Shown piece by piece: positions 17,700-29,045 of a stretch of 64,000 nt of DNA. A program made the translations under genes and the position numbers. The stretch spans positions 1-64,000 of IMG/VR virus record IMGVR_UViG_3300036828_000568. One strand, given 5' to 3'. Source of the stretch: a virus. The notes beneath the pieces are model-generated. The model searched no databases, was not told the origin of the DNA, and saw nothing but the letters and a program-made list of their open reading frames with translations. Numbering within the stretch: position 1 is the stretch's first letter; each line of letters opens with the position of its first letter.

Positions 17700-17889
17700 G
17701 TGCTAATGTCCTTTCGGTTGTTGCACATTACTGTTGGGGAAAGGTGATACTCGGTTTTTGTTATTTCATACACGACCCTCCTTCTTGGTTGTGTTCGACA
17801 ACCTCCGAAAACCCGGTATCGTTGTACCGGGCTGTAAAGCATTATTGCAGCATGATTTGCCGAACACAAGGCGTATTTTTTGTACAGAA

Positions 17890-18861
17890 AACTCGCGCGT
17901 CGTGGTACTTTCTTGTAGTATGGTTCGCTCACTTGCTGTGGTACACTCTTAGGTCGCCTGGCTCGCTCACGTCACAATGGTACTCTCGCCACTTTTGGCT
18001 CACTCCCGTTCTATGGTACTCTCCATATAGTTGGTTCGCTCTTCACCTATGGTACACTTGCTTCCGTTGGCTCGCTCTCCTGGTATGGTACTCTCCAGGT
18101 GATTGGCTCGCTCTTCTTCTATGGTACATTCTGCATTCTTGGCTCACTCACGTTTTATGGTACTCTCCGTTGGGATGGCTCACTCGTACAGGATGGTACA
18201 CTCAGTCAGGATGGCTCGCTCACTTTGTTTGGTACTCTCTGTCAATATGGCTCGCTTCATTCGTATGGTACATTCGTGCGTCATGGCTCGCTTACACTTT
18301 ATGGTACTCTTCAGGCTGTTGGCTCACTCCGCGGGTTTGGTACTCTTTGGTCTTGTGGCTCGCTTCCGTTCAATGATACACTCGACCAGGATGGCTCGCT
18401 CACCTCATATGGTACTCTAACCAGTTATGGCTCGCTCTTCGACGATGGTACACTCCCAATACGTGGCTCGCTCTCATGATATGGTACTCTTCGAAGACAT
18501 GGCTCGCTCTTGTGGGCTGGTACACTCGGTCGGGGTGGCTCGCTTCCTATGGTACACTCTATGAACATGGCTCGCTCAAGTTTCCTGGTACTCTTCCCCG
18601 CGCAGGTTCGCTCACCATTTATGGTACTCTTTCCCATAGTGGCTCACTCTTCTCGTATGGTACACTCTGGCATGTTGGTTCGCTCGCAGTCTATGGTACT
18701 CTCTGCATGGGTGGCTCGCTTTCATCATATGGTACACTCAGGTGGGGTGGCTCGCTCTGTCTTATTGGTACACTCGACGCTTATGGCTCGCTCACGCACT
18801 ATGGTACTCTCGTGTCGATTTGGCTCGCTCTCTGACTCTGGTACACTCACGCTTACTGGCT
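17890..18861 (-). ncRNA. TIGR-type dual-repeat guide-RNA array (about 27 x 36-nt units)
   Basis: minus-strand unit AGCCA-N9-AG(T/A)GTACCA-N9-AGCG; 27 AGWGTACCA-type and 26 complete AGCGAGCCA-type repeats alternating at 18-nt spacing; variable spacers; abuts Nop-domain gene. Confidence 0.9.
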
Positions 18862-19682
18862 TACCAAGTTCCCCACTCGGGCGGTGGTTCGATCTTATCG
18901 ATGTGCCCGAGGTGGGTTATTGGGAAAGGTTGTGGAGCATCTTTCCCAAACTCTAGCTTGTACCACACCTGATGCAAGTGGGACAAGAATATCTTAGTAG
19001 CGTACCGACGACTACGAGCATCTATCTGTGCAGGAGGCAATTTACCTGTAAGAAGATGCTTGCGTGTTTCCGTAGGTTTCTTATAGCGTGGCAAGAGTTC
19101 CCTAGCAGTCTGTGCGTTGCCGCCGTTTTCGTTGCGCTTGATTTCATATTCCTTGCGCACCTCATAGATCTTGCCGTAATAGCATTTGTCGTTGTTGTGG
19201 AATTTCATAAAGCATTGACCGATATGCCAGCACAATGTCTTAAGACCAGCATTCCAAGGGCGCTTTTCACCCTCGCCCCATTTGTCTGTGGGATCCAACC
19301 CGGCAAAGCGCCAGATATGCCCGGTGGAGGGGCAGACTTTGATGTCGATATGGGCGATTAATCCGGCTGATATTACTGGCCCAATCCCAAAAATGTTCTT
19401 CATACGACGGCCAATTTCTTTGCTGTCGCTATACCGGTCAAGCGCACTACGGAGGTTGCGTTCCAGTACATCGCTCTGTACTGCCAACCAGTTCAGGATT
19501 TCGTGTGGTTCTACCACTTCTTCAGTGGTCATAGACCGGATTTGGTTATCCGACCGTTTGCGCATTTCCTGCATGATGTAATAGCTATCAACAAGGAAGC
19601 GTGCTTCCCTATCTGATAGTGTTACCGCCGCTGTCCGTAAATCACGGGACAGTCGTTCTACAGATTCTATGTCCATTACCAT
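18861..19682 (-). CDS. tasA: Tas protein (TasA-type): IS110/Nop RNA-binding domain without nuclease domain
   Basis: N-terminal coiled coil (LVDSYYIMQEMRKRSDNQ); IFGIGPVISAGLIAHI...IWRFAGLDP...WNAGLKTLCW...YYGKIYE.RK...ARSRRYATKIFL; no DEDD/RuvC or HNH domain; AAGGAG RBS; adjacent dual-repeat array. Confidence 0.85.
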   Translation of the reverse strand: MVMDIESVERLSRDLRTAAVTLSDREARFLVDSYYIMQEMRKRSDNQIRSMTTEEVVEPHEILNWLAVQSDVLERNLRSALDRYSDSKEIGRRMKNIFGIGPVISAGLIAHIDIKVCPSTGHIWRFAGLDPTDKWGEGEKRPWNAGLKTLCWHIGQCFMKFHNNDKCYYGKIYEVRKEYEIKRNENGGNAQTARELLPRYKKPTETRKHLLTGKLPPAQIDARSRRYATKIFLSHLHQVWYKLEFGKDAPQPFPITHLGHIDKIEPPPEWGTW

Positions 19683-19963
19683 TCTCCTTTCATTGGAACA
19701 TATACTCCATTACGCTCTACTAATTGAACCGGGTTCATACCCGGTCCGACACTACGTTCTGCGCACGCCCGCACGCGCGGGGGTCGTTTTACCCATAATT
19801 TCCGACCAATGAACGTGCCTAGCTGGATTGTTAACACGCATATCCAAAACAGGCCCACTATGATTTGAGCTGCTAATTGAATTAGTAGCCCGATCAATAT
19901 CAGGGTTTCGCGCGCTAGTAGAACTAGCAGCACTCCCAGTATAAAAAAGAACACCAAGGTCAT
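19676..19963 (-). CDS. small membrane protein overlapping tas start
   Basis: hydrophobic N-terminal ~50 aa; AGGTG RBS. Confidence 0.6.
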   Translation of the reverse strand: MTLVFFFILGVLLVLLARETLILIGLLIQLAAQIIVGLFWICVLTIQLGTFIGRKLWVKRPPRVRACAERSVGPGMNPVQLVERNGVYVPMKGEW

Positions 19964-20178
19964 AGTATCACCTATTCGGTGCCCCCACTTTCGCAGGGGG
20001 CTCGCGGCTTAGTCAGAATCCTTTCAGGTATCTCCACTGCCACAGGAACTGTCCCACTATGGGGGCACCACGACAGGGCCTTACTGAAATCATAGGCGGA
20101 CATTCCCTAAACTGCCGGAGTTACTATAACCGCGACCACCGGCTGCGCGGTGCTCTTATCGAACTTAACCATGCCCTA

Positions 20179-20207
20179 ATTATACTTTACAGAAACAAGG
20201 AAAGCAA
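20179..20207 (-). promoter_or_regulatory. sigma70-like promoter of the tas/array unit, GTAAAG class
   Basis: minus strand TTGCTT-tccttgtttctGTAAAG-TATAAT. Confidence 0.8.
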
Positions 20208-20356
20208 TGCTCTTGTTTTATTTTGTTTTTCCGATTATTTCGTTCAGTTCTGCTAGGGTTTTGTCTGGAGAACTAACGACTGCACTGATTTTGCATTTTC
20301 CTGGGAATCGTATATCAAAATCCTTTATATGTTCTAACCATGATTGGATCAATTCA

Positions 20357-20557
20357 TCAGGAAGTTCTGTTATCGTCAGGATCTTCAACTTCTGCCTCCA
20401 CTTTTCCTGTGCCCTCACAATGAGTGCATGGTGTAATGTCTGTAATGATAAAATTATGGGAAGTGTCCATTGTTATTACTTCACCTTCACCCTTGCAACA
20501 TGGACATGTGACCTTTGGCATTATCGTCCTCCCTTCAGATGTATACTGTGATACCAT
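20357..20557 (-). CDS. small DnaJ-type Zn-finger protein
   Basis: CPCCKGEG...CTHCEGTG (CxxCxGxG x2). Confidence 0.6.
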   Translation of the reverse strand: MVSQYTSEGRTIMPKVTCPCCKGEGEVITMDTSHNFIITDITPCTHCEGTGKVEAEVEDPDDNRTS

Positions 20558-21820: not shown

Positions 21821-23122
21821 ATGACAATACAACTTCCAATCCCACTACAAGGACAAAGAATTATTAGTCTGCCTCGCTTGCATCCTGGGCAGATAGAAGC
21901 TTTCCTAATGTCTGCTCGATTTAGAGCATTGCGTTGTGGGCGACGGTGGGGGAAGACTAATTTCTTAAAAGCTGTCGCCTGTGACTTCGCAGCGAAAGGT
22001 GCCCAAGTTGGATGGTTTGTCCCTAACTACCGCTATGCCTCGGAGGCGTATAGTGAAAACGAGGTTACGCTAGAACCCGCCGTTCGAAGTTCCTCACGCA
22101 ACTTGGGCACCATTCATACAACCTCTGGTGGACGAATTGAACTCTGGACTCTTGAGGATGAAAAGGCTGGTCGTTCCCGTCGTTACCATCTGGTGATTAT
22201 TGATGAAGCCGCTTTCACTAAGCCGAATGCTATCGCCATCTGGGAGAAAGCTATTAGGCCAACGCTGCTGGACTTCCGTGGCGCTGCCATCGTTGCATCA
22301 AACACTAATGGGATCAACGAGGATAATCTTTTCTGGCGCATCTGCAATTTGTCAGAGTACGGATTCAAAGAATATCACGCACCGTCACATAACAATCCGT
22401 TCCTCCCAGCCGATGAACTCGAGCGTCTTGAGCGCGACAACCACCCCCTCGTCTATGCCCAAGAATACTTAGCAGAATTTGTCGATTGGTCAGGTGAAGC
22501 ATTCTTTAGCCTGAACAATTTGTTAACCGAAGGCAAGCCAGAACCATTTCCTCAGCGGTGTCTTTATGTTTTTGCAACGATGGATACTGCTGTTAAGACT
22601 GGTAAAGAAAATGATGGTACGGGAGTTATCTATTGGGCATATGAAAGACTTGGTGAGGAGAAGTGGTTAAAGATTATTGATTATGAATATTTGCAGATTG
22701 AAGGTTCTTTGCTTGAAACTTGGCTTCCTGTAGTTTATCAGAACTTAGAAGAATATGCGAAAAAATGTGGTTCAAGGCTAGGACACCGAGGGTGCTTTAT
22801 CGAAGACAAGGCCAGTGGGTCGATTCTGCTACAGCAAGCACGACGCCGGATGCTAGTCGTCAGCGAAATGCCGCAAAAGCTCACGCAGCTTGGAAAAGCG
22901 GAGCGAGCGATAAACGTCAGCGGGTACGTGTTCCAAGGCAAAGTCAAACTTCTGGAAACGGCGTACGATAAAGTGCTTTCATATAAGCAAGTCACAAAAA
23001 ATCATCTACTTGGGCAAGTGCTAGGGTTCCGTGTAGGTGATGTTGAAGATCGAGCAGATGATCTGTTAGATGCCTTCACATACGGTATCGCAATTAGCAT
23101 GGGAAATTGGGAGGGATTCTAA
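21821..23122 (+). CDS. terL: terminase large subunit
   Basis: CGRRWGKT Walker A, IIDEAAF Walker B, QEYLAEF, nuclease MDTA...IEDK...DDLLDA. Confidence 0.95.
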   Translation: MTIQLPIPLQGQRIISLPRLHPGQIEAFLMSARFRALRCGRRWGKTNFLKAVACDFAAKGAQVGWFVPNYRYASEAYSENEVTLEPAVRSSSRNLGTIHTTSGGRIELWTLEDEKAGRSRRYHLVIIDEAAFTKPNAIAIWEKAIRPTLLDFRGAAIVASNTNGINEDNLFWRICNLSEYGFKEYHAPSHNNPFLPADELERLERDNHPLVYAQEYLAEFVDWSGEAFFSLNNLLTEGKPEPFPQRCLYVFATMDTAVKTGKENDGTGVIYWAYERLGEEKWLKIIDYEYLQIEGSLLETWLPVVYQNLEEYAKKCGSRLGHRGCFIEDKASGSILLQQARRRMLVVSEMPQKLTQLGKAERAINVSGYVFQGKVKLLETAYDKVLSYKQVTKNHLLGQVLGFRVGDVEDRADDLLDAFTYGIAISMGNWEGF

Positions 23123-26563: not shown

Positions 26564-26878
26564 ATGCCATTGACTGAAAAGGGTGAAAAAATTAAATCTG
26601 CGATGACCAAGCAATATGGTCCCGAAAAAGGTGAACAAGTTTTCTATGCTTCCAAGAACGCAGGGCGAATTACCGGGGTAGATGATTTTCAACATATGGG
26701 GTTCACTGGTGGTGAAGCCAAACCGATTAAGGATTTGATTTCTGAATGTGATGCGCTTGCAACCCGGTTAGATGCTTTTGAAAAACGCAAATCAATGCGT
26801 AAGCCTGAACAAGTTAAGCCGAGGACCAAAGACAATATGCAGCCATCTATGCCCCACCCTAAGGAACCGGGTGGATGA
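26564..26878 (+). CDS. conserved phage hypothetical protein
   Basis: GGAGG RBS; MPLTEKGEKI...YG.EKGEQVFYASKNAG. Confidence 0.75.
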   Translation: MPLTEKGEKIKSAMTKQYGPEKGEQVFYASKNAGRITGVDDFQHMGFTGGEAKPIKDLISECDALATRLDAFEKRKSMRKPEQVKPRTKDNMQPSMPHPKEPGG

Positions 26879-27990
26879 CCAAAGCGGCAGGGATCTTGTT
26901 TAAATCCCCAGAAGGTCGTGTTTTGCTTTGCCGTCGTACTGATGGGTTGGGATGGTGTACTCCAGGTGGTGTACAAAAAGATGGCGAAACAATTGAATCC
27001 TGCGCCGTTAGGGAGTGCTTGGAAGAAACGGGGTTTCTTACCGGTCATGCAGGAAGATTGCTTTGCCGTCGAGTTGCAGATGATGTTGATTTCACCACTT
27101 TTATTTACGATTGCGATGATGAATTTGTCCCTAAACTAAATCATGAACATGATGCTTTTGTTTGGATAAATCCTGATCATGCTTCTAGCATGAATTTGCA
27201 TCCTGGTATAAACATTGCCCTGCGCAAAATGAAGGGCATGAATGAATTACAGCTTGCAGAGGCTATCAGGGACGGGGAGCTGGTTTCTCCTCAATATATT
27301 GAAAATGTTATGCTAGTGGATATGCGAATCAGTGGTACAGGGTTCAGCTTTAGACCCAAGCTCAATGAGTGGGTATATCGCCGTGACACCATATATCTTA
27401 GCCCTGAATTTGTTAATCGATGTAGCGGAATTCCAGTTATTTTGGACCACCCAAGCACTCAGATTCTTAATTCTGATGAATTCTCCAAGCGAGTCGTTGG
27501 AACAATGTTTCTACCATATGTTAAGGGAGATGAGGTCTGGGGAATTGCCAAGGTTTATGATCGTAGGGCACAGATAGCATTAAATGACTTTGATCTTTCT
27601 ACTTCACCTAGCGTAGTATTTAGGGATACGAGTGTAAATTACAATATCGAAATGGATGATGGTAGTAATTTGCTGGTCGAAGGAAATCCAAGTTTTGTGG
27701 ACCATTTGGCAATTTGCGAAAAGGGTGTGTGGGACAAAGGCGGCGATCCTTCTGGAATTCGAATTGATTCCCAGGCAACTGGTGAACCCAGGGAAAAGGT
27801 TGTCACCGCAAAGCCAGATCAAGGTGGTATTCTACCAGAGCCACCTTTGCCGATTGGTGGATCTAATGATGTTCCTGCTCCACCGATGCAAAGTATTCCA
27901 CCCGGTCTAGTTGGTTTGGCAGATAATCTTGGCCGACTTACCGATAGAATTGAGAAATTCATGACTCGGCGAGACCTGATGGTCCGTTGA
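26875..27990 (+). CDS. NUDIX hydrolase fused to DUF2213-like prohead protease
   Basis: Nudix box GGVQKDGETIESCAVRECLEETG; VYR...PVILDHP...DHLAICEKG; position before scaffold and capsid. Confidence 0.8.
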   Translation: MTKAAGILFKSPEGRVLLCRRTDGLGWCTPGGVQKDGETIESCAVRECLEETGFLTGHAGRLLCRRVADDVDFTTFIYDCDDEFVPKLNHEHDAFVWINPDHASSMNLHPGINIALRKMKGMNELQLAEAIRDGELVSPQYIENVMLVDMRISGTGFSFRPKLNEWVYRRDTIYLSPEFVNRCSGIPVILDHPSTQILNSDEFSKRVVGTMFLPYVKGDEVWGIAKVYDRRAQIALNDFDLSTSPSVVFRDTSVNYNIEMDDGSNLLVEGNPSFVDHLAICEKGVWDKGGDPSGIRIDSQATGEPREKVVTAKPDQGGILPEPPLPIGGSNDVPAPPMQSIPPGLVGLADNLGRLTDRIEKFMTRRDLMVR

Positions 27991-28037
27991 ACCGCGCGAT
28001 GAGCGCATAGTGTAAGCTGCAATATAGGAGTCTTACG

Positions 28038-29045
28038 ATGCCCACTACCGCAGCAGACGGCAGCGTCAGCGTGGATTCATTGCTCGCCGACGCCATTTCG
28101 AAGATGGATGCGCTCACCAAGCGCATGGATGCCCTGGAGACCGGCGAAAAGCACGGGACTCCGATCAAAGGAGACGACGATGACGATAAAAAGTCTAAAT
28201 CGGATAGTAAGGCAGCGTCGTCTCGCGGCGACGACGATGACGATGAACGCCGAAAGGACAGCGGCGGGAAGGCCGACGGTTCGACAGCTCCCAAGACTAA
28301 GATCCTTGACTCAGAAAAAGCTGATGCAAAGGCAGATGCAGGCTTCCCTCCGTCCAAGATGAAAAAGGACGATGATGGGGAGCTTGAAATCAAACATGGC
28401 AAGGAAAAGTCCGATGCTTTTCCGCCCAAGAAAAAGGACGATGCTGCCAAGGCCAAGTCCGACGACGATGATGACGACAAAAAGGACGACGCGGCCAAGG
28501 CAAAGTCCGACGACGATGATGACGACAAAAAGAAGAAGGACGACGCTGTGAAGGACGACGCCATTTCTGGTCTGCGCAGGCAAATTGCAGACCAGCAATC
28601 TGTTATTGAGCGGCTGCAATCGCTCATTAAACCTCGTTCCGATGATGAACATGCTCAGTTTGCAGAGGCTCAGTCTCGGGCTGATGCCGTGTTCAATGGA
28701 TTTGGGCAGCGTGCCCCACGTCCGCTTGATGGTGAGGGTATCCTCGACTATCGGAAGCGGCTGGCAACGAAGCTGAAAAATCATTCGGCGATTTGGAAGG
28801 GTGTGAAACTTTCCGTGTTGCCGGAAGAGGCTTTTGGCATTGCCGAAACCCAAATCTATACAGATGCGACAACCGCCGCCACCAATCCTGTGGATCTGGA
28901 AGCAGGTGAATTGCGCATGGTCACGAAGATCGACCCCGCGACCGGTGTGCGCTCGAACGTCTTCTATGGTAAGGAGTCGTTCGTGAAAGCGATGGGTCGT
29001 CCGGGCCGTAGGGTTGCGTCTTTCCGCACCCTTGCTTCCCAGTAA
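28038..29045 (+). CDS. capsid scaffolding protein
   Basis: Asp/Lys low-complexity repeats plus coiled coil; between protease and capsid genes. Confidence 0.75.
   Translation: MPTTAADGSVSVDSLLADAISKMDALTKRMDALETGEKHGTPIKGDDDDDKKSKSDSKAASSRGDDDDDERRKDSGGKADGSTAPKTKILDSEKADAKADAGFPPSKMKKDDDGELEIKHGKEKSDAFPPKKKDDAAKAKSDDDDDDKKDDAAKAKSDDDDDDKKKKDDAVKDDAISGLRRQIADQQSVIERLQSLIKPRSDDEHAQFAEAQSRADAVFNGFGQRAPRPLDGEGILDYRKRLATKLKNHSAIWKGVKLSVLPEEAFGIAETQIYTDATTAATNPVDLEAGELRMVTKIDPATGVRSNVFYGKESFVKAMGRPGRRVASFRTLASQ

Follow-up and report, generated by a model that had tools for sequence, protein, structure and literature searches.

A nuclease-less, probable TasA protein and its 27-unit dual-repeat TIGR array in a soil phage contig

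Analysis of a 64,000-nt window of viral DNA (positions 1 to 64,000 of IMG/VR record IMGVR_UViG_3300036828_000568) indicated that a phage locus on its minus strand very probably encodes the TasA protein of a dual-repeat TIGR-Tas system, in which the guide array lies directly behind the gene. For this locus, we obtained its anatomy, the family membership of the protein, the absence of DNA-catalytic residues, a modelled dimer interface and evidence of purifying selection. The 75-kb contig to which the window belongs originates from soil metagenomes and is phage-like, with genes for a large terminase, a portal, a primase and a helicase. The locus is organized, in the direction of transcription, as follows.

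20179 to 20207, minus strand: candidate sigma-70-type promoter (TTGCTT, 17 nt, TATAAT), putative, read from the sequence
19964 to 20178, minus strand: leader of about 215 nt between the candidate promoter and orf95, with G+C-rich hairpins, from a reading of the sequence
19676 to 19963, minus strand: orf95, an orphan hydrophobic (membrane) ORF of 95 aa, whose stop overlaps the likely tasA start
18861 to 19682, minus strand: tasA ORF, 273 aa from 19682, probably 271 aa from 19676
17892 to 18866, minus strand: dual-repeat TIGR array of 27 units of 36 nt, directly downstream of tasA on the same strand
17808 to 17831, minus strand: terminator-like hairpin (CCCGGTA, 6-nt loop, TACCGGG, then TTTT), read by eye

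Three features suggest that the second ATG of tasA, at 19676, is probably the likelier start: an AGGAG box is located 7 nt 5' of it, it overlaps the stop codon of the upstream orf95 (TAATG), and the public gene call (P0001) is also 271 aa long. Residue numbers given here nevertheless follow the 273-aa numbering. A single transcription unit of orf95, tasA and the array would start from the candidate promoter. This promoter was passed over by a consensus promoter scan, its -35 hexamer matching at 3 of 6 positions, and the terminator scan likewise passed over the hairpin, whose T run has only 4 T. The hairpin lies approximately 60 nt past the end of the array, a position that fits the published array anatomy (PMC12045711). 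As for orf95, it had no Pfam or PHROG match, retrieved only itself among 5.8 billion proteins and gave no tblastn match in 80 related viral loci. Upstream of the candidate promoter, at 20357-20557 (minus strand), we also observed a 66-aa ORF with CxxCxGxG-like cysteine pairs, resembling a zinc finger. Elsewhere in the window, PHROG 6216 is matched by two adjacent ORFs at 26875-29045 (plus strand), its N-terminal half by one and its C-terminal half by the other. The first ORF also has a Nudix-like region, and the pair may represent a split or frameshifted gene.

Within each unit of the array, the edge repeat (GAGCGAGCCA) comes first, followed by spacer A (8 nt), the loop repeat (GAG[T/A]GTACCA, or GAGWGTACCA) and spacer B (8 nt). 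Both repeats are 10 nt long, with GAG at the start and CCA at the end. The first edge repeat is truncated at its 5' side and overlaps the tasA stop codon, and the last one is truncated at its 3' side, leaving GAG. Repeats ending in CCA are the published "box C" signature (PMC12045711), and since these ends occur only on the minus strand, which is the strand of tasA, array and gene are read in one direction. Several regularities were seen along the array (17892-18866, minus strand). Two versions of the loop repeat, GAGTGTACCA and GAGAGTACCA, mostly take turns from unit to unit, and Tandem Repeats Finder therefore reports periods of 72 and 144 besides 36; the array may have grown by the duplication of two-unit blocks. 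Spacer B begins with TA in 15 of the 27 units, a bias absent from spacer A, and either the loop repeat is effectively two bases longer or the targets are biased. Irregular units, which are probably defective guides, also occur: spacer B of unit 9 is 4 nt long, and spacers of 9 to 10 nt are found in units 2, 25 and 26.

18546 to 18577, 18812 to 18830 and 17949 to 18005, minus strand: irregular array units, from their spacer lengths

On the opposite strand, ORFs of 210, 148, 126 and 119 aa (17744-18956, plus strand), with a periodic "GSL...YGTL" pattern, were rejected as genes, being artefacts of the 36-nt repeat.

Next, the family membership of the protein was evaluated with profile, sequence and structure searches. 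TasA covered the whole NCBIfam profile NF052498 (TIGR-Tas) end to end with 186 bits, against a cutoff of 100, and it remained below the cutoff of the IS110 transposase model NF033542 (25.2 bits, cutoff 140). The sole Pfam match at cutoff was Transposase_20, a borderline hit at residues 93-135 (21.4 bits versus 21.3), and PHROG 4285 was matched at 6.5e-40. In a phmmer search against PDB sequences, TasR (9mty, 2e-10) and TasH (2e-9) came ahead of IS621 (2.7e-3). An AlphaFold2 model built on 46 homologs (mean pLDDT 89.4, pTM 0.86) contains only helices and zero beta strands, with an N-terminal coiled coil at residues 5-86 (helices 5-19, 24-51 and 61-86) followed by a helical Nop/IS110-Tnp-like RNA-binding domain. 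The best Foldseek matches of this model were TasH (9vzx, 9w04, 21kl) and TasR (9mty), with E values from 2e-7 to 2e-5, and the bridge recombinases ISCro4 and IS621 ranked after them. The designation as a Tas protein, made in the preliminary description of this DNA from the sequence alone, is thus upheld by the NF052498 score and by the TasH and TasR structures as best matches. The name that NF052498 would assign, "TIGR-Tas system RNA-guided endonuclease", is misleading for nuclease-less members of the TasA type.

The coiled coil is also the region through which the protein is predicted to dimerize.

19425 to 19670, minus strand: coiled-coil dimerization region, residues 5-86, from the AlphaFold2 helices and the homodimer model

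The TasA homodimer model places the interface at residues 11-80 with a score of 0.58, against 0.00 for the best of 3 controls, but because TasH and TasR dimers have already been solved, this pass may reflect likeness to solved dimers and not independent proof. Among proteins of known structure, 20 of 30 solved as pairs of one chain reached the mark that defines a pass, compared with 1 of 23 solved as single chains; the homodimer runs had a contact agreement of at least 61% and a partner pLDDT of at least 80.

We then looked for residues that could carry out DNA chemistry. A DEDD RuvC domain was absent from TasA in both the Pfam search and the AlphaFold2 model, and neither an HNH nor a RuvC domain precedes the coiled coil, which begins at residue 5. 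Since beta strands are missing from the model, neither a RuvC nor an HNH fold is present. We also inspected the loop in which IS110 recombinases bear their catalytic serine.

19251 to 19304, minus strand: loop equivalent to the IS110 catalytic-Ser loop, residues 127-144 (AGLDP...RPWN), with no Ser

In IS621, the catalytic residues are S241-G242 (PMC11208158). The phmmer alignment pairs IS621 residue 239 with T132 of TasA, so that S241-G242 would fall at approximately K134-W135; with no Ser following T132, they have no counterpart in TasA. Residues W135, R141, P142 and N144 of the loop are invariant or nearly so across the TasA family, suggesting that the Ser-less loop is conserved for a different role. 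TasA is therefore devoid of a DNA-cleaving or recombining centre. These results agree with what had been read from the sequence beforehand, namely that the protein starts directly with the coiled coil, without DEDD RuvC or HNH domains (it is helical only, from residue 5), and that its version of the IS110 catalytic-serine loop holds no Ser. The accompanying description of the protein as "catalytically empty" holds for DNA chemistry only and is too strong for the protein as a whole, in which an invariant histidine of guide maturation is kept.

This histidine belongs to a putative RNA-processing site, on a C-terminal loop of the protein.

18897 to 18935, minus strand: C-terminal loop, residues 250-262, equivalent to the SpTasH Y289/H296 dyad, with F253 and H260

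SpTasH cleaves its precursor RNA without requiring metal ions, through Y289 and H296, which lie on a C-terminal loop of the Nop domain that is flexible (PMC13421893). We located both residues on the SpTasH sequence and aligned it with TasA and its relatives. H260, which corresponds to H296, is present in all 184 aligned sequences. At position 253, which corresponds to Y289, 157 of them have Tyr and 27 have Phe, TasA being among the latter; the two residues swap at this position even among its closest relatives. The AlphaFold2 pLDDT falls below 50 at residues 254-260, indicating that the loop is flexible in TasA too. At the level of the alignment, TasA probably keeps at least part of the RNA-processing centre and, because the invariant His of the dyad is kept, may still cut its own guide precursor. 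Autonomous guide maturation is nevertheless uncertain, the Tyr of the dyad being Phe, and for the same reason host RNases could possibly help in the process.

To place the locus among its relatives, we searched protein and viral sequence collections. The protein search returned 4491 homologs, of which the best-scoring 120 are solo forms of 261-297 aa; the closest relatives (P0002-P0004) are 78-86% identical to TasA. Relatives are encoded by 311 IMG/VR viral contigs, and most of the 80 related viral loci examined carry an array with a 36-nt period beside the gene. An all-against-all comparison of the ORFs within approximately 3.5 kb revealed nothing common to these 80 loci besides tasA and the array, the other shared "ORFs" being rejected as spurious frames over one or the other, and no ParB-like gene adjoins tasA in this phage. 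Since relatives occur on so many viral contigs, with arrays beside most of the 80 and nothing else shared, TasA and the array form a self-contained module. Other collections were searched as well: one metagenome scan found none, a second only relatives at no more than 57% identity, the phage GenBank collection had SpTasH as its sole match, and a scan of genome contigs found distant relatives in MAGs of several phyla, without pointing to a host.

By analogy with characterized relatives, the locus would work as follows. One leftward transcript would carry orf95, tasA and the 27-unit array, and the array RNA would be cut inside the edge repeats into 36-nt tigRNAs, each running from one half edge repeat through spacer A, the loop repeat and spacer B to another half edge repeat. 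A TasA homodimer, joined through its N-terminal coiled coil, would hold one tigRNA, its two Nop domains binding the repeats at their CCA (box C) and GAG (box D-like) ends. The two 8-nt spacers would then pair with opposite strands of a 16-bp DNA site, which the complex would bind and bend without cutting, because TasA has no RuvC domain, HNH domain or recombinase serine. Such a complex could serve as a roadblock or repressor at specific sequences, with host genes or rival mobile elements as its most likely targets.

Related proteins suggest that this TasA would process RNA, bind DNA and repress transcription. Faure et al. (2025, Science, PMC12045711) defined TasA as a solo-Nop protein and the commonest TIGR effector, observed that FpTasA from Flavonifractor plautii binds 36-nt tigRNAs, and proposed non-cleaving interference for TasA. 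A preprint by Xu et al. (2026, bioRxiv 10.64898/2026.09.09.750476) describes target binding by stem-loop TasA in EMSA and reversible, guide-dependent repression; its no-cleavage result is explicit only for two dead TasR proteins and is expected for the nuclease-less TasA. Cryo-EM structures of ternary complexes of PlTasA on DNA have heteroduplexes on both strands (bioRxiv 10.64898/2026.08.11.744272). MbTasA, whose repression was measured, and PlTasA, whose DNA-bound structure was solved, use stem-loop guides, and because of this, DNA binding and repression by a dual-repeat TasA would be an extrapolation from the stem-loop type. Given that stem-loop TasA binds its target and represses it reversibly, the preliminary proposal of a guided DNA binder acting by programmable repression or as a roadblock is the best reading of this protein.

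The guides were also compared with the DNA at hand. The 23 regular guides were searched as 16-nt composites in two geometries, spacer A followed by the reverse complement of spacer B (A+rc(B)) and the converse (rc(B)+A). At no more than 1 mismatch, there was no match in the 75-kb contig or in 672 kb of related loci. At 2 mismatches, the contig gave 1 match, versus 0.9 expected from shuffled guides, and the related loci gave matches at chance level. According to Xu et al. (bioRxiv 10.64898/2026.09.09.750476), 16 nt are too few for a meaningful search of large collections. Since no guide matched the phage contig or the related loci beyond chance, the natural targets are expected to lie elsewhere. 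This result bears on a different reading of the same DNA-bound complex, in which it is not a transcriptional silencer and instead blocks the replication or partition of rival elements, or bends DNA for phage integration or packaging. Faure et al. (PMC12045711) raised these possibilities, pointing to the near-180-degree bend of the target DNA and to the interference of TasR with plasmid maintenance, and the unit adjoins packaging genes, with the terminase at 21821-23122. Nevertheless, the lack of any guide match in the genome of the phage itself speaks against a role on phage DNA, and the only measured activity of TasA is transcriptional repression (bioRxiv 10.64898/2026.09.09.750476); we consider a non-silencing role unlikely.

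The 95-aa ORF upstream of tasA leads to two further proposals. In the first, the Phe-for-Tyr exchange is combined with the membrane protein: guides would mature through a His-only or His-His centre or a host RNase, and the complex would be tethered or gated by the orphan membrane protein, whose translation would be coupled to that of TasA, resulting in a phage-specific, membrane-linked silencing device against host or rival-phage genes. We regard this combination as distinctly unlikely. In the second, which we hold to be very unlikely, TasA would be the targeting subunit only, and the real activity would come from an effector in trans, either a phage or host nuclease or the co-translated orf95 product. 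The overlap of the orf95 stop with the likely tasA start (TAATG) suggests translational coupling, and some TasA loci lie in an operon with a ParB-like gene (Faure et al., PMC12045711), so partners exist in parts of the family. Here, however, no such gene lies beside tasA, orf95 is without homologs among the 5.8e9 proteins and the 80 related viral loci, those loci have no gene in common within approximately 3.5 kb, and stem-loop TasA represses in E. coli without an added partner (bioRxiv 10.64898/2026.09.09.750476). A partner in trans, be it the orf95 membrane protein or a phage nuclease, had been put forward in the preliminary description together with a gene-neighbourhood check of the homologs; this check, run on the 80 related loci, left only tasA and the array in common, with no partner gene, and the proposal found no support.

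Selection on tasA could be assessed from a second population. The same locus (17800-20210) is present in a second soil metagenome, from another study. All 10 tasA differences between the two samples are synonymous, so selection on tasA is purifying and the gene is no decaying transposase. In run X2, orf95 carries 3 SNPs, 1 of them non-synonymous. The second sample has the same 27 array units with 3 point changes, two in repeats (to variants already found elsewhere in the array) and one in a spacer, and no spacer turnover was seen between the two samples. That tasA is a functionless, decayed IS110-family transposase that has lost its RuvC domain and catalytic serine is next to impossible: the weak Transposase_20 match (21.4 bits) and the label "transposase" that databases give to its relatives point that way, whereas the solo architecture shared by the best-scoring 120 of 4491 homologs (261-297 aa), the 27-unit guide array next to tasA, an arrangement also seen at most of the 80 related viral loci examined, a TIGR-Tas model passed and an IS110 model failed, and 10 out of 10 synonymous substitutions between the two soil populations all argue against it.

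Compared with known systems, the locus resembles that of FpTasA in that both proteins are phage-carried and consist of a solo coiled coil and Nop domain without a nuclease, and both genes are followed by an array of 36-nt units with two alternating short, CCA-ended repeats, truncated terminal edge repeats and a terminator. In contrast, the spacers are 8+8 nt here and 9+9 nt in FpTIGR, the repeats start with GAG here and with UG there, and the array has 27 units, versus the usual 5-15. The best structural match of TasA is SpTasH of Salicola phage CGphi29 (PDB 9w03, 9w04, 21kl; PMC13421893), whose array is likewise built of 36-nt units with 8-nt spacers and whose repeat (AAGCGAGCCA) is nearly identical, and which shares the conserved C-terminal His (H296 there, H260 here). 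However, SpTasH bears an N-terminal HNH nuclease that cuts both DNA strands, which TasA lacks, and the position of its catalytic Tyr289 is Phe in TasA. We also observed that the Salicola phage TasH array (L001:2040-2430, plus strand) and the present one have the near-identical repeat (A/G)AGCGAGCCA despite an identity of approximately 21% between the Tas proteins.

MbTasA and PlTasA are, like this protein, nuclease-less Tas proteins that form dimers guided by a dual-spacer RNA, but their tigRNAs are of the stem-loop type and they lack the C-terminal Y/H loop, whereas the TasA described here belongs with dual-repeat guides and keeps the loop and its His. A more distant relationship is seen with the IS110 bridge recombinase IS621 (PDB 8wt6; PMC11208158), with which TasA shares homologous coiled-coil and Tnp/Nop RNA-binding domains, among them the GIGP helix-hairpin-helix and the AGLxP motif. 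The bridge recombinases have a DEDD RuvC domain and a catalytic Ser-Gly, both missing from TasA, and they use a single bridge RNA, in contrast to the guide array found here.

Overall, these results support the reading of the protein as a nuclease-less, RNA-guided TasA, a type already published (TasA in 2025 and natural RNA-guided repressors in 2026). Published work on repression and on the DNA-bound structure concerns the stem-loop type of TasA, and the dual-repeat type is a small gap. To this family, the locus adds a complete phage example with clear boundaries, whose array is unusually long at 27 guides, as well as evidence from populations that selection on tasA is purifying, and a natural Tyr-to-Phe variant at the guide-processing site.
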